A DNA stretch of 64,000 bases, taken from NCBI GenBank assembly GCA_963575745.1, contig CAUYUJ010000227.1, positions 1-64,000 of the forward strand, written 5' to 3'. Source of the DNA: Prorocentrum cordatum (lineage: Eukaryota). This document shows positions 1-64,000 of this stretch, piece by piece. A program made the position numbers and the translations under genes. Positions within the stretch are counted from its first letter, which is position 1. Every line of letters begins with the position of its first letter. A model generated the notes under the pieces. The model had not been told where the DNA came from. It searched no databases and saw only the letters and a program-made list of their open reading frames with translations.

Positions 1-1139
1 TCTCCTCCTCCTCCTCCTCCTCCTCCTCCCCCTTCTCCTCCTGCTCCTTTTCCTCCTCCTCCTCCTCCTCCTCCTCCTCGACGGGCCCTGTGGCTCTGTG
101 CGGAGCAGGGCCTCTGGTGCCCAGGCCAGGCGGGCCAGGCGGGCCGCGCCGGCGCGGCGGCGGTCCCGGGCGGGCAGCCCGCTCTCTCCCCTGCATCCCT
201 CCCTCCCTGCCTCCTGCCACGCTTGCTTTGGTCGAGAGAGACCCAGACCCCCTCGCGTTGCGAAAAAATACACGACGGGAGGTTTATCGCTATTTTCTGC
301 CTCTGGGGGCCCTCACTGGGCCCCGGGACCATCAAAAAAACGACTGGGGATGAAAAACCGGTCCCGGGGAATGGGTCGGGACCTCTGGGGGTCGTGCAAT
401 TGAATGAAAAAAATTAAAAGAAAAATCGGGGGTCTGGGGAGAGAGCGAGAGAGGAAGTAACATCGGGGAACAGACAATGACAAAAGCAGGAAGCTCGAAG
501 GCCCGCGCGGATTTCTTGGACGGGCGCTTGGTCCCCCCTGGCTGCGCCTCACTCCGCGCGCCAGGGAAGGGGGGTACAGCGCCGATCCGAGGAACCCGCG
601 CGGATCTCCGAGTCTTTCTGTCTATGCCACTGCTTGTTCCTTTTTGTTTTCCTATGGAAGTGACACCCCAGCGGAGGGACTGCCCCAAGCAGACTTGAGC
701 GGGCAGATGCGTAAGAAGGGAGGAGAAGAGAACGAGGGGGAATGCGCGGAAATTCGTTGTTACCCACTCTGTGGAGAGAGAAAGAGAGATGTTTATATAT
801 ATATATATGTGTAAATATATAAAGAAGGGAGAAAGAAAAACAGTGTGAGAGAGAGGGAAACAACAACAAAAAGAAAGTGAGAGAGGGTGACAGTGAACCC
901 CTAGCTTAAAGACTGCTTAAAGCAGATTTGAGTTGGCAGAGACGGAACAAAATGGAAGGAGCAAGGAACCAGGGGGAGGGGAGAGAAGAGATGGAATAGC
1001 AAGAGATGGTAGGCGGTGGTTCAAGTTTGTTTGGCTCACGCCATGTTGGTTCGAGCCGCAGTGCCGTGTCTTTTCGGATGCTGGGCATCGGTCAGTGGTC
1101 TCGGGAAGGCGTTATTCTCTTGCATAGGGTGTCTAGAGC

Positions 1140-8169: not shown

Positions 8170-9080
8170 TCGCTGCCCTTCGTGGCCCCGTTGCAGCCCT
8201 TCGTGGCCCCGTCGCTGCCCGTCGTGGCCCCCTTGCAGCCTTTCATGGCCCCCTCGCTGCCCTTCGTGGCCCCGTTGCAGCCCTTCGTGGCCACCTCGCT
8301 GCCATCCGCGGCCCCGTTGCAGCCCTTCGTGGCCCCCTGGCCTTCGTGGCCCCGACGCACCCCTTATATGCATGCGTTTCGTGGCCCCGTTGTCGCCCTT
8401 CGTGGCCCCCTCGGTGTCATTCTTGGCCCCGTTGCTGCCTTCAGTGGCCCCGTCCTTGCCCTCTGTGGCGCAATATACGTATGCCCTTCGTGGCCCCCGT
8501 TCGTTCACGCCCGTCGTGGCCCCATACAGTATGCATGTGTTTCGTGGCCCCGCTGTCGTCCTTTGTGGCCCCCTCGTTGTCCTACGTGGCCACGTTGCTA
8601 CCCTCACTGGCCCCGTCGTTGCCCTCTGTGGCCCCGCATTATATGCCCTTTGTGGCCCCCGTTCGTTCACGCCCGTCGTGGCCCCATACAGTATGCATGT
8701 GTTTCGTGGCCCCGCTGTCGTCCTTTGTGGCCCCCTCGTTGTCCTACGTGGCCACGTTGCTACCCTCACTGGCCCCGTCGTTGCCCTCTGTGGCCCCGCA
8801 TTATATGCCCTTTGTGGCCCCCGTTCGTTCACGCCCGTCGTGGCCCCATACAGTATGCATGTGTTTCGTGGCCCCGCTGTCGTCCTTTGTGGCCCCCTCG
8901 TTGTCCTACGTGGCCACGTTGCTACCCTCACTGGCCCCGTCGTTGCCCTCTGTGGCCCCGCATTATATGCCCTTTGTGGCCCCCGCTCGTTCGCGCCCTT
9001 CGTGGCCCCATACGCATGCCCTTCGTGGTCCCGCTGTAGCCCTTCGTGGCCCCCTTCCTGCCCTTCGTGGCCCCGCTGTC
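8170..9080 (+). repeat. GTGGCCCC-based ~20-bp minisatellite with a near-perfect 162-bp higher-order triplication
   Basis: CAGTATGCATGTG at 8527, 8689 and 8851. Confidence 0.9.
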
Positions 9081-12329: not shown

Positions 12330-13920
12330 TCCTCGCGTCGTGAACAAAGTCTCGACAGCTGTTGTTTTACAATTTGTCGGCCTCTGAGGGCCCCATGGGC
12401 CGCCAGACAGCGACGTGGGATGAGAAGCCGTTCCTGAAAGCTGTCGAGACTCGAGACCTTTTGGGGGCCCACGTTGCGAACAAACTGTTGCGACAGCTGG
12501 CTCTTTGAAATGTTAGGCCCCCGGGGGGCCCATGGACCGCCAGACGACGACTTGGGATGAGAAGCCGGTCTCTGCGAAGGGGTCGAGACTCGAGACCTCT
12601 GGGGGGCGCACGTTGCGAACATATCGCTGCGACGGCTAGCTCTCTGCAAATTTAGGCCCCCAGGGGGCCCATGGACCGCCAGACAACGGTTTGGGATGAG
12701 AAGCTGCTCCTGGAAGGCGTCGAGACTCGAGACCTTTGGGGGCCCGCGTTGCGAACGAATCGCCACGACGGCTGGCCCCTTGCAATCTTAGGCCCCCCGG
12801 CGGCCCATGGGCCGCCAGACAACGACTCGGGCTGAGAAGGCGGTCCTAGAAGCCGTCGAGACTCGAGACCTTTGGGAGCGCGCGTTGCGAACGAATCGCC
12901 GCGACGGCCGGCTCTTTCAATTTCAGGCCCTCGAGAGGCCCATGGACCGCCAGACAGCGACTTGAGCTGAAAAGCTGGCCCTAGAAGGCCTCGAGACTCG
13001 AGACCTCTGGGGGCCCGCGTTGCGAACAAATCGTTGCGACGGTTGGCTCTTTGTAATTTCAGGCCCCCGTGAGGCCCACGGACCACCGGACAACGACCTG
13101 GGACGAGAAGTCGCTCCTGGAAGGCGTCGAGACACGAGACCTCTGGGGGCCCGCGTTGCGAACGGATCGTCGCGACCGCTGGCTCTTTGCAAGTTTAGGC
13201 CCCCAGGCGACCCCTGGGCCGCCAGACAACGACTTGGGCTGAGAAGATGGTCCTAGAAGGCGTCGGAACTCGAGACGTTCGAGGGCCCACGTCGCGAACA
13301 AATCGTCGCGACGGTTGGCCCCCTGCAATTTTAGGCCCTCGAGAGGCCTGTGGACCGCCAGACAACGACTTGGGCTGAGAAGCTGCTCGCGGAAGGCGTC
13401 GAGGCTCGAGACCTTTGGGGGCCCGCGTTGCGAACAGATCGCTGCGACGGCTGGTTCTTTGCAATTTTATGCCCCTGGGCGGCCCATGGACCGCCAGACA
13501 GTGACTTGGGCCGAGAGGCCAGTCTCTGCGACGGGGTCGAGACTCGAGGCGTTTGGGGGGCCCGCGTTGCGAACCAGTCGCTGCGACGGCTGGCTTTTTT
13601 GGCCATTTGGTCCCTGGGGGCCCCATGGGCCGCCAGATGCCGACTCGGTAAGAGAGGCTGGTCCCTGCGAAGGGGTCGAGACTCGAGCTGGAAAAGACGA
13701 GGGCCAATGCAGGCGGGGTTTAGCCAGAGCGCCGGATCCTGCAGGATCCTGCAGAGCCAGGGTTGCATTGAGCCGGGGGCTGGCGCGCAGGATCCTGCAG
13801 GATCTTGCAGGATCTTGCAAAGCCTCACTGGCTCGGGTTGGCGTTGACCCGGGTCAGTAGAAGCCCGAGGGACTCGAGACCTCTAGCTCTGGGGGCCGAC
13901 GTTGCGAACAAATCGATGCG
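12330..13920 (+). repeat. ~136-bp tandem satellite, ~10-11 diverged copies
   Basis: TCGAGACTCGAGACC...GGGGCCCGCGTTGCGAAC recurs about every 136 bp; interrupted at ~13690-13860. Confidence 0.9.
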
Positions 13921-14852: not shown

Positions 14853-14952
14853 NNNNNNNNNNNNNNNNNNNNNNNNNNNNNNNNNNNNNNNNNNNNNNNN
14901 NNNNNNNNNNNNNNNNNNNNNNNNNNNNNNNNNNNNNNNNNNNNNNNNNNNN
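14853..14952. other. Assembly gap (100 N)
   Basis: Run of N. Confidence 1.
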
Positions 14953-45674: not shown

Positions 45675-46740
45675 GGCGGAAAACCGGGGGGGGTCACTAC
45701 CGGTTCGAACCCCCTCCCCCCCGCGGAAAACCAGGGGGGGTCACTGCCGGTTCGAACCCCTCCCCCCCCCCCAGTCCATCATGAAAAGGGGGGGGTCACC
45801 TCCGGTTCGAACCCCCCCCCACCCCCCCTCCTCGAAAACCGGGGGGGTCACTGCCGGTTCGAACTCTCCCCCCCCCCCCGAAAACCGGGGTGGGGGTGCG
45901 GACAGTGGTGGGGGCGGTGGTGGTGGGGACAGTGGTGAGGGGACAGCGGGACAATGGTGGGGACAGTGGGACAGTGGTGGGGATGGTAGTGGTGGGGACA
46001 GTGGTGAGGACAATGGTGGGAACAGTGGGGACAGTGGGACAGTGGTGGGGACGGTGGTGGTGGGGACAGTGGTGTGGGGACAGTGGGAATGTGGTGGAAA
46101 CATGGGACAGTGGAGGGTACAGTGGTGGTGGGGACAGTGGTGAAGGCGGCGGCGAGGACGGCGGTGGGACAATGGGACAGAGGTACAGTGGGGACAGTGG
46201 TGGGGACAGTCGGGACAGTGGTGGGAACAGTGGGACAGCTCAGTGGGACAGCGGAGGAGTCAGTGGGACAGTGGGGACAGTGGGGATAGTCGGGCAGTGG
46301 TTGGGGCTGTGGAGAAAGTGGGGAGAGTGGAACCGTGGTGGGAACAGTGGTGGGACAGTGGGGACAGTGCGACAGTGGTGGGGGCACTGGTGGGGATAGT
46401 AGGGAGGGTGGTGGAACCAGTTGGGACAGTGGTGGTGAGGACAGTGTTGCTGGGAACACCAGTGGGGGATGTGGTGCGGACGGTGGTAGCGACCGGGAGT
46501 CGTTTGCCGGTGGTGAGGGGGGGGGGGGAGGGGTTCGAACTGGTAGTGACCCCCTTCCGGTTTTCGAGGGAATGGGGGGGCCGGTTTTCAAGGGGTGGGG
46601 GTGGGGGGGGGGGGTTAGGGGAGGGGGGGGGGTTTTGCCAGGGGGAGGGGAGGGGGGGGGAATCCAGCAGGGGGAGTGGGGATTTTCGGAGGGGGGGGAC
46701 CCCCGGGTTCCGGAGGAAAATGGGGGGGAATTTTTCACAG
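45675..46740. repeat. G-rich GGGACAGTGGTG minisatellite flanked by GGGGTCACTGCCGGTTCGAACCCC repeats (four direct copies left, one inverted copy right)
   Basis: Direct copies at 45685-45880; inverted copy at ~46518-46570. Confidence 0.85.
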
Positions 46741-48504
46741 TAAAGCGGCGGTGGATCACGCTCTATCACAGGTCGACGAAGATCCCTCAGGGTCAACGTT
46801 ACGAGGGGGATTCGCTATCGGTGCGTATTGCCGATCTATCGGCGATGTATCGCCGATTCCAGGTCAGTGTGTCTCGCTCACCTGCGAGCTAACGTTGCCC
46901 CTCACCCCCAGGGTCTGCCACGCGCGCGTGAACTTGCAATGTACAAGTCTTTTGAATTTCTTATCGGGGTTTTCAGAACGTTTTTAGCCCGTGGGGCTGG
47001 CGAATCTCGCGAAACCCAAACTGCATCTTGCCGTCCGTTTCTCTTTGTCCACGGACGGGGCAACCGCGGCACAACCGAGTGGAAATTGACCCCGGAGCCG
47101 GCGCGGGGCGACCGCAGGACAGCCGCGGGACAACCGCGAAGTGCCGGCGGGACATTTGTGGGACAACCGCGGGACAGGCGCAGGGTCACCACAACGACCA
47201 CAGGACGAACACATGACAATTCTAGGCCAACCACAGGGCAGCCGTGGGACGACCCTGGGGCACCGTTGAGGACCCCGAAAGCGGAGACATTTTGCCGAAG
47301 ATGCCTCGAGCTGGAGCTGGTCTTCGCTTTCCGCCCGCTCGCGCAGCTTCGCTTCTCCCGCGCTCTTCACGAGACGGGCGAACCGAAACCGATTTCCCAA
47401 TTTGGTCCATTCCGTTTGCGCTCCGAGGCTCTGACTCCAAGAGGGAACAATGTCATGGTATACGAAGCGATGCAACGTGACGCAAGGCAATTTGTAAACA
47501 ACGCATCGATTCATGGGGCCTTCCACAAGGAACAGGGGGGCGGTCCTCGGTGTCGGACTTCTGGGGATCTGGGAAGCGGGCCCGGCCACACCGTTGCCCA
47601 CAGGCCCGTGGCACAGCTCGCGGTTTTCCCTCGATTTTCTGCGATCGGTGGTACCCTTGAAGAGTCTCTGCGGCCACCGAGCCATGTTTGGGCCGTCCTG
47701 GGCTCTCACAGAGGCATGCTGGAGGCTACCTTGTACCAACTCGGGTGATCCTGCGCCATCTCGGATGGTGTCTTGCGCTATCTGGGGCCCTGATGAAGCC
47801 GCCTATGGTCCTCCTGGACGCTGCGACCCTCCGCGGACGCCCGTGGTCCAGATCCCCAGCAAGGGGCGTTCTGGGGGAAGAAAGGTGTTTTCTGGACGAG
47901 CTGAGGCTCAGGACCACCCTTCGACTCGGGGCTGGGCGTGAGGATCCACGCCAGGTTTGGCCTGGGCCGTTCCAAGGGCACATCGAGGGGCAGTGTCAGG
48001 GGCGGATAGGCGAAGGGGGCCAGAGCGCAGCGACCCCCAATCGCCTATTCGTCGCCGACGGGGGCCTGATGGCCCACCCCGCCCAGGAAACCACCGTTTC
48101 GCCATTGGGGGCCTGTCGCCGATCTATCGGCGATGTATCGCCGATTCAAGGTCGATGTTTCCCCCCCGAGCCAGTCCCCCCCCCACATCGTTCCCCCGCA
48201 GCACCGGTGCGCCTTCTCCTCCTCTTCTCCCCCTTTCCTCGTGGCCTGCGCCCCTCCTCCGCTGCCCTGTCCGTCCTCGCTGCGCGTCAGCCCCTCGAGC
48301 CGTCGAGGCAAGAGCGAAGAGCGCGGTCCGATCACGCGCCGCGACGAGGAGAACGAGGACGGGGAGAAGGAGTAAGCAGGAGGAGGACGTGGCGATCAGC
48401 CATCCGTTGCCAGCTCTGCTACAGTGGATTTTTTCGCTGGCTGTAGCCTTCCTGGGGCAGAGTTTTGCGTCTTGCTCGCTGCCACCCAGATCTTGTCCGG
48501 AGCC

Positions 48505-50587
48505 ATGGCGATGGTATTCCCCGCGAACCAAGCTATCGTCGTCGGCGGCGGCTTGGCAGGCGTGTCCGCAGCCAACACGGTTCTCGAGTGCGGGGGCAAG
48601 GTCGTTTTGGTAGACAAGTCCTCTTTTTGCGGCGGCAACTCGACAAAGGCGACCAGCGGCATCAATGGTGCGGAGACGAAGACGCAGAAGGCCAAGGGCA
48701 TCCAGGATTCCCGCGATCTCTTCACCAACGACACCTTGAAGGGTGGGGCCAAGCGTCCGGAGCTCGCTAAGATCCTTTGCTGGAACAGTGGCGCAGACGT
48801 GGACTGGCTTGTCGACAAGTTCGACCTGGACCTGTCTCTTGTGGCGCGCCTCGGTGGCCACTCGGCGCCGCGCACTCACCGTGGCGCGGAGCGCTTCCCC
48901 GGCATGACCATTACCTACGCCCTGATCCAGATGCTTGAGAAGGCTCTGGAGGGAAAGCTAGACAGAGACACAACAAAACTACGATTGCCGATAAAATATG
49001 GGGAACTCGCTGGGAAATTGAGGGGAAGATGAAACGTCAGAAGATATGACAAACTATGGGGAATTCGGGAAATTGCGTCTCTTTGCTCGTGTCTCCCTGG
49101 GCCCTGTAAAGGTTGCAGAGAAGACGGACCGTGCCCGCATCATCACCAAAGCCTGCGCCCACAAGCTGCTGACCAACACGTCGGGGGGCAAGCTCTCCGT
49201 AGTGGGCCTGGTCTATTCCAAGAACGGTGAGGATCTCGAAGAAGGAAAACATGAGTTTAATCCATAAGCTTTAGGAGGTCCGCCAAGATGTCTTGGCATT
49301 GTGCTGGGCCTCCCCCCCGGGCGCGCGGAGCGCGCCAGGGGCGGCTCCCGAGGCGCCGCCAGGGGGTCCAGCGCCGATCCAAGAAATCCGCGCGGAGCTC
49401 CGAACATTTGGTACGATGCCGTTACTTCTTTGTCCAGGATTTCAAGGAGTTCGGCCCCGTGATCTTGGCCAGCGGTGGCTTCGGCGCCGACTTCACCACG
49501 AACTCGCTGCTGGCGCAGTACCGCCCCGACCTGCTCCATCTGCCTACCACCAACGGCGAGCACTGCACTGGCGACGGAATCAAGATGGGCGAGGCAATCG
49601 GCGCGCGGACCATCGACCTGGAGTGGGTCCAGGTGCACCCGACGGGGCTGGTGAAGCCAGACGACCCCGATGCGAAGATCAAGTTCCTGGCTGCAGAGGC
49701 CCTGCGCGGCGTGGGCGGGCTGGTGTTCGACGCCAACGGCAAGCGCTTCGCGAACGAGCTGGGCCGCCGGGACTACGTGACCGGCGAGATGTGGAAGAAC
49801 AAGCCGCCCTTCCGCCTCTGCCTGAACAAGGCGGCCTCCGACGAGATCAGCTGGCACTCGGGGGCGAAACGCATATCCGTACCCGCGGCCTCGCGGGCTG
49901 GGATACGGGGCGCTTTTTCGCGGATGCCCGCGCAGAACTTATGCGTACGACCGCGTGTCCGCGGGATCGCGCCCCAGAATCCAGACCGCGAGGGCGCGGA
50001 TGCGGACATGTTCGCCGCTCGTGAGGCACTGCAAGCATTACACTGGCCGCGGCGTCATGAAGTTCTACGAGAATGGCGAGGCCCTCGCCAAGGACATGGG
50101 GATCCCGGTGTCTGTGCTCGAGGAGACCACTGAGCTGCACTACCAGGCGGCGAAAAAGACGGAGAAGGACCCGGATGGCGGCTCCTGGCCTGCCTACCCG
50201 TCCGGCAAGTCTTGGGACGAGCCCAGCGGCAAGACGGGCTCCGGCAAGAAGTTCTACCACAACATCATCCCGGGCTCCGCCGTGAAGACCCAGCCGTTCT
50301 ACGTCGCCATCATCACCCCCGTCATCCACTACTGCATGGGCGGCCTGGAGGTGGACGTCGACTCCGCGGTGCTGGACACGAAGAGCGGCAAGGCGATCCC
50401 AGGCCTGTACGCCGCGGGCGAGGTGGCTGGCGGCATCCATGGCAACAACCGCCTGGGCGGGAACTCCCTGTTGGACTGCGTCGTCTTCGGCCGCGTCGCT
50501 GCCAAGGCCGCGTGCAAGTACACGTTCGGTGCGGACGGCAAGTACCAGCTGTGCCCCGTCCCGAAGCAGATCAAGGATCTCGCGTAG
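48505..50587 (+). CDS. osm1: Soluble FAD-dependent fumarate reductase (Osm1/Frd1, flavocytochrome c flavin-domain family), copy 1; exons 48505-48942, 49112-49231, 49438-49853, 50026-50587 (511 aa)
   Basis: Spliced translation is open and has the family motifs GGGLAG (FAD), GGNSTKATSGING, RLGGHSAPRTH, ASGGF, QVHPT, AAEALRG, RFANELGRRD, HYCMGG and GEVAGGIHGNNRLGGNSL. Codons are strongly GC3-biased. Exon joins restore frame (LEK|VAEK, NGE|DFKE, SW|HCK). An alternative ATG is at 48511. Confidence 0.93.
48943..49111 (+). other. Intron 1 of copy 1, GC-AG (169 nt)
   Basis: AAG|gctctg...gtaaag|GTT; removal restores frame; AAGG occurs at both junctions. Confidence 0.85.
49232..49437 (+). other. Intron 2 of copy 1, GA-AG (206 nt), MITE-derived
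   Basis: GAG|gatctc...gtccag|GAT; AGGAT occurs at both junctions; the body is the inverted-repeat element also found outside the gene. Confidence 0.85.
49854..50025 (+). other. Intron 3 of copy 1, GC-AG (172 nt), long fold-back
   Basis: TG|gcactc...cgtgag|GCAC; GGCACT occurs at both junctions; ~65-70 nt imperfect inverted arms. Confidence 0.85.
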
Positions 50588-50673
50588 AGTGCTCGTGGCC
50601 GCGCGTGCCGCCCCAGTCATTGCCTCCTCGTTCCCTGATGTGTTCCCTCTGCCATCGTGGGAGAAAGAAGGAG

Positions 50674-50843
50674 CCGGCGTAAACATACACTTTCGGAGCT
50701 GCGCTCGGATCTCTTAGATATGCGCTGGGCCCCCTCGGCGACGCCTCTGGCGCCGCCCCTGGCGCGCTCCGCGCGCCAGGCAGTGGCGTCCAGCGCCGAC
50801 CCGAGAAACCCGCGCGGAGCTCCGACGGTTTATGGTTATGCGG
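50674..50843 (-). mobile_element. Free copy of the intron-2 MITE family
   Basis: Arms CATAAACTTTCGGAGCTCCGCGCGG-like; core GGCGCGCGGAGCGCGCC in reverse orientation; counterpart at 62129-62299. Confidence 0.75.
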
Positions 50844-51125
50844 TTGCTTCTCCCTCGGATCATATCCTCTTGTCCCTTCTTCTCTCTTCCCTCCTCCTCG
50901 TCCCCTTCCTCCACTGTGGCAGCCCTCTATGCACCAGTCGTGTCGGAGGGCATCGCTTCCGCGGTGAGTGAAGGCTCACTTGCTTCCACGATCGGACGTC
51001 CTCCGAGAGGAAAACAATCGGTCCCGCCGGCTACCTCGCGTTCCGGGCGTAGGCCTTCCAGTTCATTCAGCAGGCTTGCGCCATTCCCCCGGGCACCCGA
51101 GAGGTGGATGGGCGAGTTCGAAGTA

Positions 51126-51300
51126 TAAACATAAACTGTCGGAGTTCCGCGCGGATGTCTTGGAATTGTGCTGGGCCCCCCTCCCTGGCGCGCGGAGCGC
51201 GCCAGGTGCGGCTCTGGAGGCGCCGCCAGGGCGGCCCAGCGCCGATCCAAGAACTCCGCGGGGAGCTGCGAAAGTTTGTGTTCATGCCGCTTTTCCTGTC
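51126..51300 (+). mobile_element. Free copy of the intron-2 MITE family
   Basis: Same arms and core as intron 2; counterpart at ~62890-63080. Confidence 0.75.
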
Positions 51301-51799
51301 TCTACGACTGCAGCTCCCTCCGCTTTCGCTTTCCCTGCGGCCCGACCAGAAGCAATGCCCAGCATCTGGAGCATTGCCATTGGCACGGGGATGCCGACGG
51401 CAGTTCCTGCCCCTCTTCAGGCGGGCTCGCAGGCGGAATCTCGTTTGGGACGAAGGGCAGTGCTGTCGTGGTGTGAGGGGTTGGTGGTTGCTTCAATGCA
51501 CAAGTCAGCGCTACAGGATTATCTTATTCATTGTTTTGTCGATCGGCCCGGGCCCTCGCACCTCCCCTCCCCCTCGATGACATAGATCTTGGCTGTTTTT
51601 GGCACCTGTTTCAGACCGGTGGAGTCTCAGGCCCCCCCCATACGGCAATAGGACGGGCTTCTCGGGCCATCCTGCGGCACTCTGGGAGTTCGTCGTCCTC
51701 ATAGCACGTCCAGGACCTCCAGGACAGCCCAGCCAGAAGCCGAAAAGGTGTGCGAGGGCGCCCAGGAGTCCTGCGAGTTGGGGGTCTGGGCCCCTAAAG

Positions 51800-54608
51800 A
51801 TATGTACCAGAATGTAAGTGTTGAGGACTCGAAGGGACTAGATGATGCTCGAGTAAGTGCCTACAGCACGGTGGCAGATCTGATAGCTTCCTTGGTTGTT
51901 TCATGGGCAGACTCGCTTGTACTGGCTTTTAGCAATCGCCGTATTTTGTTCGATGACGTTGGTGATGGAGGCTGTTTTCCTACCGTTTTCAGCGTTGGCT
52001 TCTAAGAGCTTCGCGCACCTTTCTTGTTCCAAGTCTTTTGTCATTTGAGGTGGTTTGAGTGCTTTTGTATTGAGCGTCTTCTTAGGTTCGCTTTGTGTGG
52101 GGCTTCATAACGACCCAAGATGGCCCGAACAGGCACCAGAGAGGCCGAGAGGGCCAATCATGTCTCAGCATGTCGCTATGATTGTGCGTTGCGCAGCATT
52201 GGTCGTCCTTCTCCGCGGCCGTTTTCAAACCTCAAGGATATTCTTGCTGCGCCATCAGGGGCGCACGGACCGCCCCCCGCGGAAGTGGATGCTCATGGTC
52301 TGGCTCACTTCCACTGCCCCGCTGCAGGTGGCGACGATCAGCATGGTGACTGCCTTCTCCGCCTGGGTGGTCCGCGGCCTTTTCTCGGACGCAGGGGAGT
52401 CTGCGCGGGCCGCGGGCAAGGCGGAGGTCAGGTACCCAGAGATCCCCGACCCGGTGTGCCAATGTCATTGCGAGTGCGAAGCAATGCGGGGGTCACCAAA
52501 CTTGGCAGCTCATGTTTGGCCCAGTGATCTGCCTCGGCTGCTCGGGCGTGCAGGTGGGCGTCGCGTGCGTACAGGATGGAGCAGGTCGGGCTGCCGTTGC
52601 CGATGGGGTCGGAGCGATGCCGATTTTCCGGCGAGCGTTTGTGCAGTGAGCGGGCGCGAGCGGGGAGTTGTTGCACGAGCGGGTGTTTCTGAATGATGTG
52701 TCCGTAAGGTTTGTCACGATAGCGAGCCCAGATTGCGATGTACGACGAGGGCATGGGATATCAGGGGACTTTCGAGCTGGTACGGAGCGTTGGCGACAAC
52801 GGGGTGTTTTGGGCCCAGATTCGGGGGCGCTCAAGTTTACAGATTTTAAGGGCAACCGACAGATGCAGAGGTCGATAACTTGCTGGCGGAGGCGATCGGT
52901 GTCGTGGCGCTCAGGGGGCCAGCACGGCATCGGTGAGCTCATGACGATGCTTGCCGGTGCAGTGCAGGCGACTTGGCACGGGCTTACGCGTCTCCCTGAC
53001 ATCCAGGTCCCGAGGCCTGCTCTCGTCGGGCAGCTGAACAACTGCCAGGCGGAGATCGACACCTTCTGAGAGGAGTGGACCAAGTGGTGCCAGGCAGCGA
53101 CGGCGTCGAGCGCGAATGACCAGGTCTTGGGCGACGACATTGGCCGAGGACAGCTGAGTGGCATCGCCGGGGGGCCATCGAGATGTCGGAGGGGCCGCGG
53201 GCCCAACATCTGAAGTGGTTGGCGGATGAGAAGATCCCGGATGGAGACCGCTCGGCGTATGAGGACGCCAACCTGGCGCTGGTGCATGAGTTCGCGGTTA
53301 TCGCGCCGAGCTGCGAGGACGGGGCGCGCTTCATGGGCGACTGGGTGCGCGCCGGGGGCGCGTTGGGGGCCCCAGTGCTCTCGGCCAACGTGTCGGATCG
53401 GGTGTGGGAAGAGGCGGCCATCTCAAAGGAGCAGCGCAAGGCTCGCCCGTGCCTCGGTAATTTCCTTGAGGGCCAGGTGCAGCAGACGGGTGTCGAGCTG
53501 GGGATGACTTCCCCAGCTTGGCCGTTGATTCGAATTTTAGGAGGAGTTATGCCAGTGTCCGAAGACGCTGGTACTGCTCAGGAGCCCGAGAATGTCCCTG
53601 GCAGGTATCGTCACGTCATTCCTCTTCCCCGACTTGCAGCGGGGCGGAGAGGTATCCTTGCGGGGATGTGCCGTTCGACGGCGCGGCGCCTGGCGGGGGG
53701 GTGGGCCGCGGCTGCCGCGGTTAATTTTCTGTCGACGGGTGAGTTTCATGCGCTCTGGCGCTTGGCCTGCGCCTGCCCCTCCGGGCGCTTCTGACCTTCT
53801 AAGCCCGCCGCAGTGCCAGCGCGCTGCCTTCGCTCGTCGTGTCTGCCGTGTCCGCGAGCTGGGCCTCAAGCCTCCTGGTGTCACTCGTTCGGGCGCCCTT
53901 CATGAGCTGTGGGTTTTGAGCATGATTATGCAGGGGGCCTACATGCCACAGGGCCCCTGGGCCCCCGTGGTTCAGCACTACCTTGCGTTTTCTGGCGTGG
54001 GTCGTTCGCAAGTTGATTTGGGGTCAGTCTTGGTGGGCTTGCCCCGAGAGTGCTGTCATATTCATGAAGAGAAGATGCTCGCGGGGGCCAGCTGTCTGAC
54101 AAAGAGCCCCGAGTGCGTCCTACACGGGCCGGCTTTTGTGGGCGCCTTTTGGTTTTGCATATTGTGCCGCCGGGGTGGTTCGGCGCCCTGATTCTCGAAT
54201 CGGGGCGTTCGTGGTTTTGGAGAAGTCCGGAATGCGACGTCCCGTCTTCGACTGCGGTCAGTGTTATCTTAGGATTGCCCCTCTTCCTCATGCCGAACAT
54301 GGGCGCTGAAGTCCTCTTTGAGTAACCTGGGGGTCCAGGAAGGGCAGGCCCTGTAGTGGGTCCCAGGCGAGATTTATTCGTGCTAGCATTATGATGACTT
54401 TGCTTCGGAGTCTGTCGTGTTCGCGGGGAGTCTGGAGTTCGGCGTGTCGGGGGACGTCTTGAACATGTCAACATTTGATGAGGGAGCTTCGATGTGCTTG
54501 GTTGCCCCGCCCGCGGATGTACCTGGTCGTTCTGGGCGGCATATTGTGACAGCTGAATGCCGGTGTTGTTTCGCGCGAGGAACCTGGTGGCCTGCGCGAT
54601 GAGCGGCA

Positions 54609-57089: not shown

Positions 57090-57522
57090 GCATGATGATG
57101 CTGATGCTGATGCTGATGCTGATTCTGCTGCTGATGATGAGGATGATGGTGATGCTGAGGCTGATGATGATGACGATGATGATGACGACGACGACAACGA
57201 GGATGATGCTGATGCTGCTGATGATGATGATGCTGATGGCGATGGTGCTGATCGTGATGATGGTGATGTTGATGATGCTGCTGCTGATGATGCTGATTTT
57301 CATGATGCTGATGGTGATGCTGATGATGCTGATGTTACTGACGATGCTGCTAACGATGACAATGATGATGCTGATGGTGGTGATGAACGTGATCATGATG
57401 ATGATGGCAATGACGTTGACGACGACGACGACAACGACGATGACGATGATGCTGATGCTGCTGATGATGATGATGAAGGTTATGCAGATGATGATGCGGA
57501 TTCAGCTGATGATGATGACGGC

Positions 57523-57559
<37 letters not shown>

Positions 57560-57752
57560 ATGATGATGATGATGATGTTGATGATGATGAACGTATTGAT
57601 GATGTTGCTGACGATGCTGATGATGGTGATTATGATGCTGATGCTGATGCTGCTGATGGTGATGCTGATGATGATGATGATTGTGATGCTGATGGTATGA
57701 TGGTGATGGTGATGCTGTTGCTGCTGATGATGATGATGGCGATTATTTTGCA

Positions 57753-57783
<31 letters not shown>

Positions 57784-57983
57784 CTGATGATGATGGTGCT
57801 GATGATGATGATGCTGATGACGATGACGATGACGATGATGCTGATGATGGTGGTGACGATGATGGTGCTGATGCTGATGCTGATGCTGATGCTGATGATA
57901 CTGATGCTGCTGCTGCTGAGGATGATGATGATTCTGATGATTACTATGATGATGCTGATGATGATGATGATGGTGGTGGTGGT

Positions 57984-58048
<65 letters not shown>

Positions 58049-58147
58049 TGATGATGATGATGATGATGACGATGATGATGATTATGATGATGGTTCTGAT
58101 GATGCTGATGATGACGACGATGATGATGATGATGATGATGATGATGC

Positions 58148-58197
<50 letters not shown>
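57090..58197 (+). repeat. (GAT/GCT/GAC)n degenerate trinucleotide tract
   Basis: Direct reading. Confidence 0.95.
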
Positions 58198-59508
58198 CAA
58201 GCCTGTCGCCCAGTGCCGTGTTCGGGGCAGGCCAGGTGGTGTTTCTTCGGTAAGTAGCCGAGTCGGGAATGATCAGCGGAATAATTTCTGATGATGTCTC
58301 GGGTGAAACGAACCCCTGTTTCATATAATTTGCAGAGGACGTCTAGCGAAACGCTTGCTTTCGTTTGTTGAGGATGTCTCGTGCGAGTCGCTGTTCTTCA
58401 GACTTTGTTCAGGATGTCTCATGCGAAGCGCTCGTTTTGTAGTGTTAAGAAGCCTGGACGCCACAGGACGCTCCAGGAGGCTTTGGGGCGCGGGGGCGCA
58501 CCCATCGGATCCTTGGAGCTGTCGCATTTGGAGGGGCCCCACGCGCGGGGGGAGGAGGAGGAGGAGGAGGAGGAGGAGGAGGAGGAGGAGGAGGAGGAGG
58601 AGGAGGAGGAGGAGGCGGAGGCCTGAACTTCTCGGATCCTCTTGGCGAGCTACGCGTTCAGCCAGCTCGTTCGCAGTACCCCCTGGGGCCGCGGCGGGGC
58701 GACCGCAGGAGGTGCTGGCGGGACATCCGTGGGACAACCGCGGGACAAGCACGGGGTAGCAGAAGAACAGCCACAGGACAAGCACAGGACAACTGCGGGC
58801 CAACCACAGGGCTGCTTCGGGGCGACCCCGGGGCACCGTCGAGGACCCCAAACATGGAAGCATGTTTGCCGACGCAGCCTCGAGCTGGAGCTGGTCGTCG
58901 CTTTTCGCCCACTCGCGCAGCTTCGCCTCTCCCGCACGCGCGGCACGAGACGGGCGAGCCGAAGCCGATTTCCGAATGTGGTCATTCCGTTCGCACTCCG
59001 AAGCGCTAAGTCGAAGAGGTAGCAATTCAATGCAATGGTGCACAAATCGATTCAAAGTAACGCAAGACAAAACAACACTATGCACAGCATCGATCTAGGG
59101 GCTTTCCGCAAGAAACAGGGGCCTGTCGCCGATCTATCGGCAATGTATCGCCGATTCAAGGTCGATGTTTCCCCTCCGAACCAGTCCCCCCCCCCACATC
59201 GTTCCCCCGCAGCACCGGTGCGCCTTCTCCTCTTCTCCCCCTTCCCTCGTGGCCTGCGCCCCTCTTCCGCTTCCCTGTCCGTCCTCGCTGCGCGTCAGCC
59301 CCTGGATCCGTCGAGACAAGAGTGAAGAGCGCCGCCCGATCACGCGCCGCGACGAGGAGAACGAGGACGGGGGGAAGGAGTAAGCAGGAGGAGGACGTGG
59401 CGATCAGCCATCCGTTGCCAGCTCTGCTACAGTGGATTTTTTCGCTGGCTGTAGCCCTCCTGTGGCAGAGTTTTGCGTCTCGCTGCCACCCAGATCTTGG
59501 TCGGAGCC

Positions 59509-62042
59509 ATGGCGATGGTATTCCCCGCGAACCAAGCTATCGTCGTCGGTGGCGGCTTGGCAGGCGTGTCCGCAGCCAACACGGTTCTCGAGTGCGGGGG
59601 CAAGGTCGTCTTGGTAGACAAGTCCTCTTTTTGCGGCGGCAACTCGACAAAGGCGACCAGCGGCATCAATGGTGCGGAGACGAAGACGCAGAAGGCCAAG
59701 GGCATCCAGGATTCCCGCGATCTCTTCACCAACGACACCTTGAAGGGTGGGGCCAAGCGTCCGGAGCTCGCTAAGATCCTTTGCTGGAACAGTGGCGCAG
59801 ACGTGGACTGGCTTGTCGACAAGTTCGACCTGGACCTGTCTCTTGTGGCGCGCCTCGGTGGCCACTCGGCGCCGCGCACTCACCGTGGCGCGGAGCGCTT
59901 TCCCGGCATGACCATTACCTACGCCCTGATCCAGATGCTTGAGAAGGCTCTGGAGGGAAAGCTAGACACAGACACAACAAAACTACGACTCCCGATCACA
60001 TATGGGAAACTCGCAGGGAAATTGAGGGGAAGACGAAACGTCAGAAGATACATCAGCCAACGTTGACTCCAAATAGATAGGAGGACAGGAGGAGGACGAG
60101 AGGAGGATGGCAGGAGGACGAAAGGAGGACGGGAGCAGGACGGGAGGAGGACCGGAGGAGCAAAATCAAGCAAACACAAGCGAGCAAGCGGAAGCAAGCA
60201 AGCGCAAGCGAGCAATAACAAGCAAGCAAGAGCCATCGATCAAGTGCAAGCAAGAAAAGGCAAGCAAGAGCAAGCAAGCAAGAGCAAGCACGCAAGCAAG
60301 AGAGCAAACAAGAGCAAGCATAGGACTCGCCGTTGGAAATAGCTGGGGGGTTCCATTGGAAATAACGGGGGTTGCCATTGAAAAAAGGTGGGGTGAGGGG
60401 GCGCCATTGGAAATAAGGGGGGCTGCCATTGGAAAAAAGGGGATTGGGTGCTAAAGATCAATTAATTGAGCTAGGACTCCTATAGGGCAAACCTGTTTGG
60501 ATAATGACAAACTATGGGGAATTCGGGAAATTGTGTCTTTTTGCTTGTGTCTCCCTGGGCCCTGTAAAGGTTGCAGAGAAGACTGACCGTGCCCGCATCA
60601 TCACCAAAGCCTGCGCCCACAAGCTGCTGACCAACACGTCGGGGGGCAAGCTCTCCGTAGTGGGCCTGATCTATTCCAAGAACGGTGAGGATCTCGAAGA
60701 CGGAACAAATGAGTTTAATCCATAAGCTTTAGGAGGTCCGCCAAGATGTCTTGGAATTGTGCTGGGCCCCCCTGGCGCGCGGAGCGCGCCAGGGGCGGCT
60801 CTGGAGGCGCCGCCAGGGGGTCCATCGCCGATTCAAGAAATCCGCGCGGAGCTCTGAACGTTTAGTGCGATGCCGTTACTTCTTTGTCCAGGATTTCAAG
60901 GAGTTCGGCCCCGTGATCTTGGCCAGCGGTGGCTTCGGCGCCGACTTCACCACGAACTCGCTGCTGGCGCAGTACCGCCCCGACCTGCTCCATCTGCCTA
61001 CCACCAACGGCGAGCACTGCACTGGCGACGGAATCAAGATGGGCGAGGCAATCGGCGCGCGGACCATCGACCTGGAGTGGGTCCAGGTGCACCCGACGGG
61101 GCTGGTGAAGCCAGACGACCCCGATGCGAAGATCAAGTTCCTGGCTGCAGAGGCCCTGCGCGGCGTGGGCGGGCTGGTGTTCGACGCCAACGGCAAGCGC
61201 TTCGCGAACGAGCTGGGCCGCCGGGACTACGTGACCGGCGAGATGTGGAAGAACAAGCCGCCCTTCCGCCTCTGCCTGAACAAGGCGGCCTCCGACGAGA
61301 TCAGCTGGCACTCGGGGGCGAAACGCATATCCGTACCCGCGGCCTCGCGGGCTGGGGATACGGGGCGCTTTTTCGCGGATGCCCGCGCAGAACTTATGCG
61401 TGCGACCGCGTGTCCGCGGGATCGCGCCCCAGAATCCAGACCGCGAGGGCGCGGATGCGGACATGTTCGCCGCTCGTGAGGCACTGCAAGCATTACACTG
61501 GCCGCGGCGTCATGAAGTTCTACGAGAATGGCGAGGCCCTCGCCAAGGACATGGGGATCCCGGTGTCTGTGCTCGAGGAGACCACTGAGCTGCACTACCA
61601 GGCGGCAAAAAAGACGGAGAAGGACCCGGATGGCGGCTCCTGGCCTGCCTACCCGTCCGGCAAGTCTTGGGACGAGCCCAGTGGCAAGACGGGCTCCGGC
61701 AAGAAGTTCTACCACAACATCATCCCGGGCTCCGCCGTGAAGACCCAGCCGTTCTACGTCGCCATCATCACCCCCGTCATCCACTACTGCATGGGCGGCC
61801 TGGAGGTGGACGTCGACTCCGCGGTGCTGGACACGAAGAGCGGCAAGGCGATCCCGGGCCTGTACGCCGCGGGCGAGGTGGCTGGCGGCATCCATGGCAA
61901 CAACCGCCTGGGCGGGAACTCCCTGTTGGACTGCGTCGTCTTCGGCCGCGTCGCTGCCAAGGCCGCGTGCAAGTACACGTTCGGTGCGGACGGCAAGTAC
62001 CAGCTGTGCCCCGTCCCGAAGCAGATCAAGGATCTCGCGTAG
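59509..62042 (+). CDS. osm1: Soluble FAD-dependent fumarate reductase, copy 2; exons 59509-59946, 60570-60689, 60892-61307, 61481-62042 (511 aa)
   Basis: Same exon lengths and motifs as copy 1. By eye there is one amino-acid difference (GLVYS/GLIYS) and about seven synonymous differences. Confidence 0.93.
59947..60569 (+). other. Intron 1 of copy 2, GC-AG (623 nt), with a 454-bp segment absent from copy 1
   Basis: Same ends as copy 1 intron 1; extra sequence at 60051-60504. Confidence 0.85.
60690..60891 (+). other. Intron 2 of copy 2, GA-AG (202 nt)
   Basis: Homologous to 49232-49437. Confidence 0.85.
61308..61480 (+). other. Intron 3 of copy 2, GC-AG (173 nt)
   Basis: Homologous to 49854-50025. 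Confidence 0.85.
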
Positions 62043-64000
62043 AGTGCTCGTGGCCGCGCGTGCCGCCCCAGTCATTGCCTCCTCGTTCCCTGTTGTGTTC
62101 CCTCTGCCATCGTGGGAGAAAGAAGGAGCCGGCATAAACATACACTTTCGGAGCTGCGCTCGGATCTCTTAGATATGCGCTGGGCCCCCTTGGCGACGCC
62201 TCTGGCGCCGCCCCTGGCGCGCTCCGCGCGCCAGGCAGGGGCGTCCAGCGCTGACCCGAGAAACCCGCGCGGAGCTCCGAAAGTTTATGGTTATGCGGTT
62301 GCTTCTCCCTCTGATCATATCCTCGTCCCTTCTTCTCTCTTCCCTTCTCCTTGTCCCCTTCCTCCACTGTGGCAGCCCTCTATGCACTAGTCGTGTTGGA
62401 GGGCATCACTTCCGCGGTGAGTGAAGGCTCACTTGCTTCCGCGATCGGACGTCCGAGGAGGGAAAAACATGCGCTACCGCCGGCTCCCTCGCGTCCCAGG
62501 AAGAGGCCGTCCAGTTCATTCAACTGGCTTGGAACAACCCCCAGCACCCGAGAGGTGCAACATTCGAGTCGGAGGGCATCACTTCTGCGGTGAGTGAAGC
62601 CTCACTTGCTTCCATGATCGGACGTCCGAGGAGGGAAAAGCAACCGCTCCCGCCTGCCACCTCGCGTTTCAGGCGCAGGCCGTCCAGTTCATTCAACAGG
62701 CTTGCGCCTTTCCCTAGCACCCGAGAGCTGAGTGGGCGAGTTCGCAGAAGGAGAATTCTTCCCGTCGGCGGCGAGGCGGCGAACTCCGCTCCAGCGAGAA
62801 GCTAGAAAGGGACACTAATTAGCGAATTGGCCGGCGGGCAACGAGAAGGGGGGGGGGACGGCCGAGAGGAAGAAGGGACGCTCAGACGCCGCAGAAGGAA
62901 AACGTGCGCAAACAGCAACTTTTGGAGCTCCGCGCGGATTTTCTTGGCGTTCTGCAGGGTCCCTGGCGCGCGGAGCGCGCCAGGGGCAATGCCAGAGGCG
63001 CCGCAAAGGGGGGCCCAGCGCCGATCCAGAAGATCCGCGCGGAGCTCCGAAGGTTCATGCTCATGCCGTCTTTCCTGTCTCTACGAGTGCAGCTCCCTCC
63101 GCTTAGGCTTCCCCAGCGGTCCGTCCAGCAACTGTGCCCAGGCTCTGGAGCATCGTCACTGGCACGGGGACGCGGACGGCAGTTCCTGCCCCTCTTGAGC
63201 CGGGCTCGCAGGCGGCATCTCGTATCGGACGAAGGGCAGTGCTTTCGTGTGTCGGGGTGTTGGTAGCTTCAATGAACGAGGCAGCGTTATAGATGAAGAG
63301 AATGCAGTGGCTTCAAGCAGGCCCTTTGTAGTACTCATTGGCCTTCGGCCCTGCCTGCCAGCGTTCCCAGGTCTTGGGCCAGGGGCCTCATGGAGTCTCT
63401 TGGGGGACCCCTTCGAGGCCTCTTGGAGGTCTCTTGGGGGCCTCATGGGAGCCTCTTGAAGCCTTCTTGGATGCCTCTTGGGTGCCTCCTGGGGCCTCTC
63501 GGGGAGCTGCTCGTCGTCTCGGCGGCCTTCGTACTTCATTCTTTAGGCCCCTAGTGGAGCCGCGTTGCAACCCTCCTGGGCCCCCCTTGAGGGGTTGGGG
63601 GCCGTGTTGGGGCAATCTTGTAAGATTTTTGGGCCGTCCTCGATGCTCTTAGTAGACTGGAGAAGGCGATAATGCTGAGCTCGTTGAACACAGGCATTTT
63701 TCAACGATTGCGGCCTCTTGGGCCCCCCCCCCCCTACGGCACCAGGACGGGCTTCTCGGGTCATCTTGCGGCACTCCCAGAGTTCGGCGTCCTCATAGCA
63801 CCTCCAGGGCCTCCAGGGCAGCCCAGCCAGAAGCCGAGGAGGTGTGCGAGGGCGCCCAGGAGTCCCGTGAGTTGGGGTTCTGGGCCCGTAATATGTATCA
63901 TAATTTCTGTTCAGGACTCGAAGGGACTTGAGTGGAGAACAGTCAAGGAAGTGCCTACGGCACGGTGGCAGATCTTACAGCTTCTTTTGTATTTCCATGC

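Follow-up and report, generated by a model that had tools for sequence, protein, structure and literature searches.

How does an intron come to consist almost entirely of a transposable element? The question is raised by a stretch of 64,000 nucleotides (nt) from the dinoflagellate Prorocentrum cordatum (GenBank assembly GCA_963575745.1, contig CAUYUJ010000227.1, positions 1 to 64,000 of the forward strand), which is referred to here as the window. Within it, a gene encoding a soluble fumarate-reductase-like flavoprotein is present twice in tandem, as copy 1 at 48511-50587 and as copy 2 at 59515-62042. The second intron of this gene (49232-49437 in copy 1) is filled by a hairpin element of the kind called miniature inverted-repeat transposable elements (MITEs), and further copies of the element are found outside the coding sequence. 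From the letters of the sequence, an earlier note had suggested that the intron was gained by insertion of the MITE. The evidence described below supports this suggestion well, and we consider it likely that intron 2 was created by insertion of the element.

Boundaries of intron 2

The gene structure was derived by comparison with the homologue P0028 (509 residues), which is tiled completely by four pieces of the gene copy in tblastn searches and runs without a gap across the intron 2 junction. Identity to P0028 amounts to 91-95% for exons 1, 3 and 4 and to 87% for the exon 2 match, which extends into the intron. As the source contig of P0028 comprises only 1847 nt, the P0028 gene is effectively free of introns. 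Exons 1, 3 and 4 of copy 1 also tile the Pfam domain FAD_binding_2 (PF00890), exon 2 being too short to score. In the database, exon 3 comes closest to proteins of dinoflagellates (Prorocentrum cordatum, Amphidinium carterae, Gonyaulax) with 91-96% identity, none of which reaches 100%. The G+C content around the gene is 60-63%, and the available part of PMC10666404 gives 59.7% for the P. cordatum genome. The features of gene copy 1 are the following.

48511..48942, plus strand: exon 1; matches PF00890 positions 2-154 (E 3.9e-21) and, by tblastn, P0028 residues 1-144; a second in-frame ATG lies at 48505
48943..49111, plus strand: intron 1; GC...AG followed by G; AAGG direct repeat on both junctions; short terminal inverted repeats
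49112..49231, plus strand: exon 2; 40 codons, ending in AAC GGT GAG; matches P0028 residues 144-184 (tblastn)
49232..49437, plus strand: intron 2; 206 nt, GA...AG followed by G, phase 0; length of removal fixed by P0028, register by the G-N donor and AG acceptor
49438..49853, plus strand: exon 3; matches PF00890 positions 197-305 (E 2.7e-23); tblastn
49854..50025, plus strand: intron 3; GC...AG followed by G; GGCAC direct repeat; end-to-end hairpin
50026..50587, plus strand: exon 4; TAG stop codon at 50585-50587; matches PF00890 positions 321-414; tblastn

Combining donors at 49190-49274 with acceptors at 49395-49474 gave 1261 in-frame, stop-free pairs that keep the frame of exon 3. The peptide SKNGEDFKEFGPV, which is present in P0028, is reproduced by only six of them, all equivalent registers of a 206-nt deletion, and of these only 49232-49437 has both a G-N donor and an AG acceptor. 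This register starts with GA at 49232 and ends with AG at 49436-49437, followed by G, in agreement with the GA-AG intron described in the earlier note. GT-AG readings of intron 2 were rejected; they cost 5-9 conserved residues, and such pairs sit further upstream. Exact excision of the 206 bases joins AAC GGT GAG to GAT TTC AAG, giving NGEDFK, with no residue gained or lost in any homologue inspected. Uninterrupted, the site would read AACGGTGAGGATTTCAAG.

If the intron is retained, the frame runs into a TAA stop at 49268. Exons 3 and 4 nevertheless stay open in both gene copies and the exons are more alike than most of their surroundings, from which it follows that the gene is apparently under selection and that the 206 nt would have to be removed. 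Homology thus strongly supports 49232-49437 as a spliceosomal intron. With donors GC, GA and GC and a G after each acceptor, the three introns accord with the published dinoflagellate pattern (bioRxiv 10.1101/2020.10.14.339549), in which donors are GT, GC or GA and the acceptor is followed by G-H.

The hairpin element

The inverted arms around a core that had been noticed in intron 2 were confirmed by folding. Positions 6-13 of the intron pair with 194-201, and the stem runs inward around a palindromic core. With a minimum free energy of -100.2 kcal/mol the fold is far more stable than 200 dinucleotide shuffles (-77.3 +/- 4.8 kcal/mol, z -4.76), none of which was as stable. The core GGCGCGCGGAGCGCGCC at 49320-49336 is invariant in seven of the eight aligned family copies, the exception being copy D (see below), and the inverted arms align across ~60-90 nt in all eight. 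In an alignment of 17 arms the similarity reaches out to a common TCG-type terminus, which begins TCGAAGAAG... and places the ends of the intron copy at about 49236 and 49436. The element is thus of the terminal inverted repeat (TIR) type with a length of ~200 bp. It covers 196-201 of the 206 intron nt, and the hairpin begins 5 nt inside either intron end. This co-extension of element and intron is directly supported by the alignments. We know of no superfamily by name whose termini match TCG...CGA.

By BLAST and profile search seven copies were found in the window, with sizes in the family of 182-208 bp.

49236..49436, plus strand: copy A1, in intron 2; runs TCGAAGAAGG...CTTCTTTGTCCA; defined by the 17-arm alignment, the family alignment and the fold, ends +/-3 nt
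60690..60891, plus strand: copy A2, intron 2 of gene copy 2; 93.6% identity to 49232-49437; GA...AG and the AGGAT repeats kept; tblastn
50655..50859, minus strand: copy B1; 67 nt past the stop codon, inverted with respect to A1; minus-strand nhmmer match with E 2e-65
62110..62314, minus strand: copy B2, paralogue of B1; 96.8% identity to B1, within the duplicated block
51118..51307, plus strand: copy C1; orientation as A1; 85% BLAST identity to the intron; nhmmer E 3.9e-64
62742..63092, plus strand: copy C2, paralogue of C1; 147-nt insertion splitting its left end; flanking DNA matches that around C1
463..644, plus strand: copy D; diverged, core partly lost; nhmmer E 3.5e-43

Like MITEs, the element is small, bounded by terminal inverted repeats and present in multiple dispersed copies. 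The four copies outside the coding sequence given in the earlier note (~50674-50843, 51126-51300, 62129-62299 and 62890-63080) are real, with BLAST identities of 72-86% and nhmmer E values of 1e-42 to 1e-68, and they do lie in both orientations; B1 and B2 score 215-225 bits on the minus strand versus 104-114 bits on the plus strand. These copies are, however, two paralogous pairs, and A2 and D had been missed. The tally is therefore to be corrected from five to four independent insertions, A, B, C and D. Copy B probably lies in the 3' untranslated region of the gene. The 147-nt insertion in C2 is bounded by perfect 10-nt direct repeats CGCAGAAGGA at 62743-62752 and 62890-62899 and has the appearance of a further insertion, its target-site duplication (TSD) being clear.

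The coding capacity of the window was assessed with Pfam for 66 of the 132 high-complexity open reading frames (ORFs) outside the satellite region. These were mostly the longer ones and a few shorter ones, while most overlapping shorter ORFs and overlaps with the gene copies were left out. The scan gave zero matches, and no other gene was recognisable among them. With regard to the element itself, the ORF over copy D (335-916, minus strand) has no Pfam match, the ORFs over A, B and C being outside the 66 scanned.

Tandem duplication

Self-comparison of the window revealed that 48108-51106 and 59118-62557 form one duplicated block with 96-97% identity, followed by weaker similarity further downstream. 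The block holds the gene together with downstream DNA, so that A2 pairs with A1, B2 with B1 and C2 with C1 as paralogues, and none of these pairs represents separate insertions. Between the two gene copies the exons are 98.3-100% identical. Identity is 85-96% in introns 1 and 2, in the 5' flank and in the DNA that follows copy B, the exceptions outside the exons being the 63 nt past the stop codon (98.4%) and intron 3 (99.4%). The intron copies A1 and A2 differ at 6.4% of the aligned sites. Since the element is found in intron 2 of both gene copies with this divergence, its insertion predates the tandem duplication.

Across the wider comparison of 48108-51905 with 58691-63999 the identity is uneven: 98.4-100% at 49438-50650, 92-96% across introns 1 and 2 as well as the 5' flank, and 85-90% downstream. 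This profile resembles that of a gene-conversion tract. An extra insertion of ~454 nt (60051-60504), composed of simple repeats resembling GGAGGAC, GCAAGCAAG and GCCATTGGAAA, is present in intron 1 of gene copy 2 and absent from copy 1.

Family members beyond the window

Metagenome contigs were scanned with a 20-nt core, which yielded at least 118 loci. Among the 118 matches listed, BLAST and nhmmer identified two true family members, L093 and L053. The former is a complete copy with ~80% identity to C1 and sharper inverted repeats, the latter a half copy. The remaining 116 were rejected as chance matches, with only the GC-rich core in common. In viral contigs the core scan returned one locus, L119, without similarity to the family, and a scan for the TIR pattern returned none; these scans give no sign of a viral carrier for the element family.

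For a protein search, seven copies were translated in the one frame that most of them keep open, and the peptides were aligned into a profile. It matched 44 database protein clusters, 23 longer and 21 near-length. The longer ones comprise eight P. cordatum gene models, whose contigs have seven different lengths, twelve entries from ENA assemblies and three EukProt entries labelled Pyramimonas_sp.AAC.1; the near-length ones comprise 15 EukProt entries with the same label and six from ENA. The element peptide is clear in the 12 proteins that were fetched, e.g. ...LSE.RADFLD.RW.PLPGARSAPGAAPEAPPG..SADPRNPRG.... As judged from these translated matches, at least one Prorocentrum genome carries the family in dispersed copies. 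Taken with the G+C content around the gene, this suggests Prorocentrum or a close relative as the source of the window.

The label Pyramimonas_sp.AAC.1, a green alga, thus applies to 18 of the 44 clusters (P0125, P0135, P0140, P0144-P0149, P0155-P0160, P0162-P0164). It could reflect a mislabelled or contaminated dataset or an element that is shared; otherwise the element appears in Prorocentrum.

Origin of intron 2

The explanation that we favour in full, and regard as likely, is that a MITE acting as an Introner inserted into a continuous coding exon and that intron 2 is the result. A non-autonomous TIR transposon of ~200 bp would have landed in the exon between the codons GAG and GAT. The spliceosome would then excise the element and one copy of the flanking repeat, together 206 nt, as a GA...AG intron, whereby NGE/DFK is restored. 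Three features may have aided this step. AG/GA is found on both sides, most simply as a duplicated target; the pyrimidine-rich element terminus CTTCTTTGTCC lies directly upstream of the AG; and the long hairpin, 5 nt inside each splice site, could bring the sites together. With these aids the insertion would have been spliced at once. The gain by MITE insertion proposed earlier is in line with an element that fills nearly the entire intron and with the restored frame; the accompanying idea that a TSD supplied the splice sites did not gain support from the flanks, which are no better than a cross-pair control.

The AGGAT direct repeat that had been reported across the junctions is indeed present, at 49230-49234 and 49436-49440. 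The 5' junction AG/GA falls inside the left copy and the 3' junction AG/GA inside the right one, both copies are kept in gene copy 2, and their spacing equals the intron length. With the element termini at 49236 and 49436, A is flanked by GGATC and GGATT, which match at four of five positions. In an 8-nt register the flanks of A (TGAGGATC / CCAGGATT) and those of L093 (TACCCTAT / TACCCGTA) agree at five of eight positions each; in a comparison by eye, those of C and D agree at four of eight, and those of B show no match. It is plausible but unproven that AGGAT is a TSD which supplied the splice sites. The length of such a duplication, if any, would be between 3 and 8 nt.

Several observations weigh against the insertion model or its TSD component. 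The splice junctions of intron 2 are derived from homology. Three of the five AGGAT bases (AG, then G) are demanded by the dinoflagellate splice consensus anyway. For five independent copies the longest word shared by the two own flanks has a mean length of 4.4 nt, compared to 3.9 nt for 20 cross pairs, in which the left flank of one copy was paired with the right flank of another; this difference is not significant, and five of the 20 cross pairs share a 5-mer or longer. The AGGAT repeat alone is thus not beyond chance, as the consensus fixes most of its bases and control pairs often match. The element ends are defined to +/-3 nt, and TSD registers of 3, 5 and 8 nt each suit some copies; among the remaining copies, which are older, no consistent TSD was recovered. 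The Pfam scan of 66 other window ORFs revealed neither a transposase nor an autonomous partner. Among the 12 fetched proteins, P. cordatum gene models included, there was no convincing case of the element peptide interrupting a recognisable domain, and the family is known as an intron at one position only (two paralogues).

Could the MITE have landed inside an older intron at this site, AGGAT then being the AG/G consensus plus two chance bases? The repeat, not significant on its own, would allow it, and so would the junction repeats of 4-5 nt in all three introns (AAGG, AGGAT and GGCAC), as a general property of introns here. The element, however, takes up 196-201 of the 206 nt, so that the older intron would have measured at most ~5-10 nt, or else a deletion would have removed it nearly up to the very ends of the element. 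To our knowledge, 5-10 nt is shorter than any functional spliceosomal intron. Because the element leaves no more than this for any older intron, gain by insertion is favoured, and we hold an older intron to be clearly improbable. The direction of events might also be reversed. A hairpin that was originally an intron would then have reached other sites through reverse splicing with reverse transcription, or through a different kind of intron transposition, and would not be a cut-and-paste DNA transposon. Such an origin would agree with the lack of a transposase among the scanned ORFs, with the unproven TSD and with the doubts on a general transposase-mediated route that Farhat et al. express for Amoebophrya introners in the available part of their paper (PMC7789003). 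Reverse splicing, however, would give one orientation and lead into transcribed strands, whereas both orientations occur among B, C, D and the metagenome copies, none of which falls within recognisable coding sequence. Moreover, long TIRs that reach the element ends are a hallmark of TIR DNA transposons. The reversed direction therefore appears improbable.

That both gene copies are pseudogenes, with the element as an unspliced insertion, is highly improbable. Junctions derived from homology would leave room for this. All four exons are, however, open in both copies and 98.3-100% identical, compared to 85-96% in most of the flanking and intron DNA, and the exons 3' of the insertion are still 91-94% identical in protein to P0028. 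In addition, the GA and AG junctions are kept in both copies.

Other introns and surroundings

Similar to intron 2, intron 3 folds into an end-to-end hairpin (-106.5 kcal/mol, z -6.57); its counterpart in gene copy 2 is located at 61308-61480. Its translation matches four unrelated database proteins, P0166-P0169, with E values of 1e-8 to 7e-4. A further match, P0165, was dropped as an unrelated repetitive protein. These matches identify intron 3, on sequence grounds, as a member of a second, different dispersed palindromic family, and it is probably another transposon-made intron. Two of the three introns of one housekeeping-type gene would then stem from different mobile families. The overall fold of intron 1 is no better than that of shuffles (z 0.11), despite its terminal inverted repeats.

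A more general reading would be that all introns of the gene were built by hairpin transposons and that the end-to-end hairpin, not the donor, sets the splice sites, which would let GA and GC donors work. We consider this doubtful. If true, such genes would be natural substrates to test structure-guided choice of splice sites in dinoflagellates.

The remainder of the window is rich in repeats. Directly after a gap of 100 N (14853-14952) begins a satellite-like array of ~29 kb (14953-43622) with units of ~0.2-1 kb in both orientations, 65-90% identity and ~50% G+C. Blocks of tandem or low-complexity repeats are located at 1138-2305, 8172-9078, 12334-13687, 45900-46430 and 57092-58198. The repeats at 45.5-46.7 kb contain long stop-free frames rich in proline and glycine on both strands.

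Comparison with known introner systems

Introners that make introns in dinoflagellates, as well as GA donors, had been cited in the earlier note as established, and both are documented (Roy et al., bioRxiv 10.1101/2020.10.14.339549; cited as Curr Biol 2023). The Introner-like elements described there have TSDs of 3, 4, 5 or 8 nt. In some classes an AGGH target supplies both splice sites, some function in either orientation, and recent gains are enriched in GA donors. The element in intron 2 resembles them as a non-autonomous TIR element that is co-extensive with an intron and has short direct repeats at the junctions. Intron 2 also shares with them the GA donor and the AG followed by G-H, and phase 0 is expected for an AGGH target. 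Among the published classes, class 14 derives both sites from AGGH, and classes 3, 6, 8 and 10 have 8-nt TSDs. The likeness is one of described features. In Polarella and Symbiodinium, those families were defined from introns that number hundreds to thousands, whereas the present one is known as an intron at one position and its other known copies are non-intronic.

Outside the dinoflagellates, Huff, Zilberman and Roy 2016 reportedly found for Aureococcus and Micromonas that insertion of a DNA transposon makes an instant intron, the TSD being co-opted for a splice site. These elements are said to use canonical GT-AG sites. The Introner Elements of both algae carry one splice site and obtain the other from the TSD (according to bioRxiv 10.1101/2020.10.14.339549); in intron 2, in contrast, the repeat appears to contain both sites, and GA serves as donor.

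For P. cordatum itself, introner-like introns have been counted by pattern. An introner element as defined by Farhat et al. combines inverted repeats that are 8-20 nt long with 3-5-nt direct repeats that overlap the exon/intron boundaries (available part of PMC7789003). Dougan et al. searched the 30 nt next to the intron ends for such repeats and report 2.4% of P. cordatum introns as positive for this hairpin pattern (available part of PMC10666404). Introns 2 and 3 both conform to this IE+ definition, which has been used for P. cordatum and Amoebophrya, and the translated family is present in P. cordatum gene models. As far as their available parts go, these two papers give pattern counts and describe no sequence families, whereas the present analysis deals with a specific family that has non-intronic copies. 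The available part of the main text of Gozashti et al. 2025 (PMC12130899) makes no mention of Prorocentrum.

The mechanism is thus already published for dinoflagellates. Our case fits the known kind in every feature tested and changes nothing about the mechanism. Compared to the pattern count offered by the available P. cordatum work, it delineates a concrete sequence family. It also provides a clean single-locus case in which an inserted element, a restored frame and non-intronic sister copies are found together in a large, GC-rich dinoflagellate genome, and thereby a test case for splicing with GA donors and for dating intron gain relative to tandem gene duplication.

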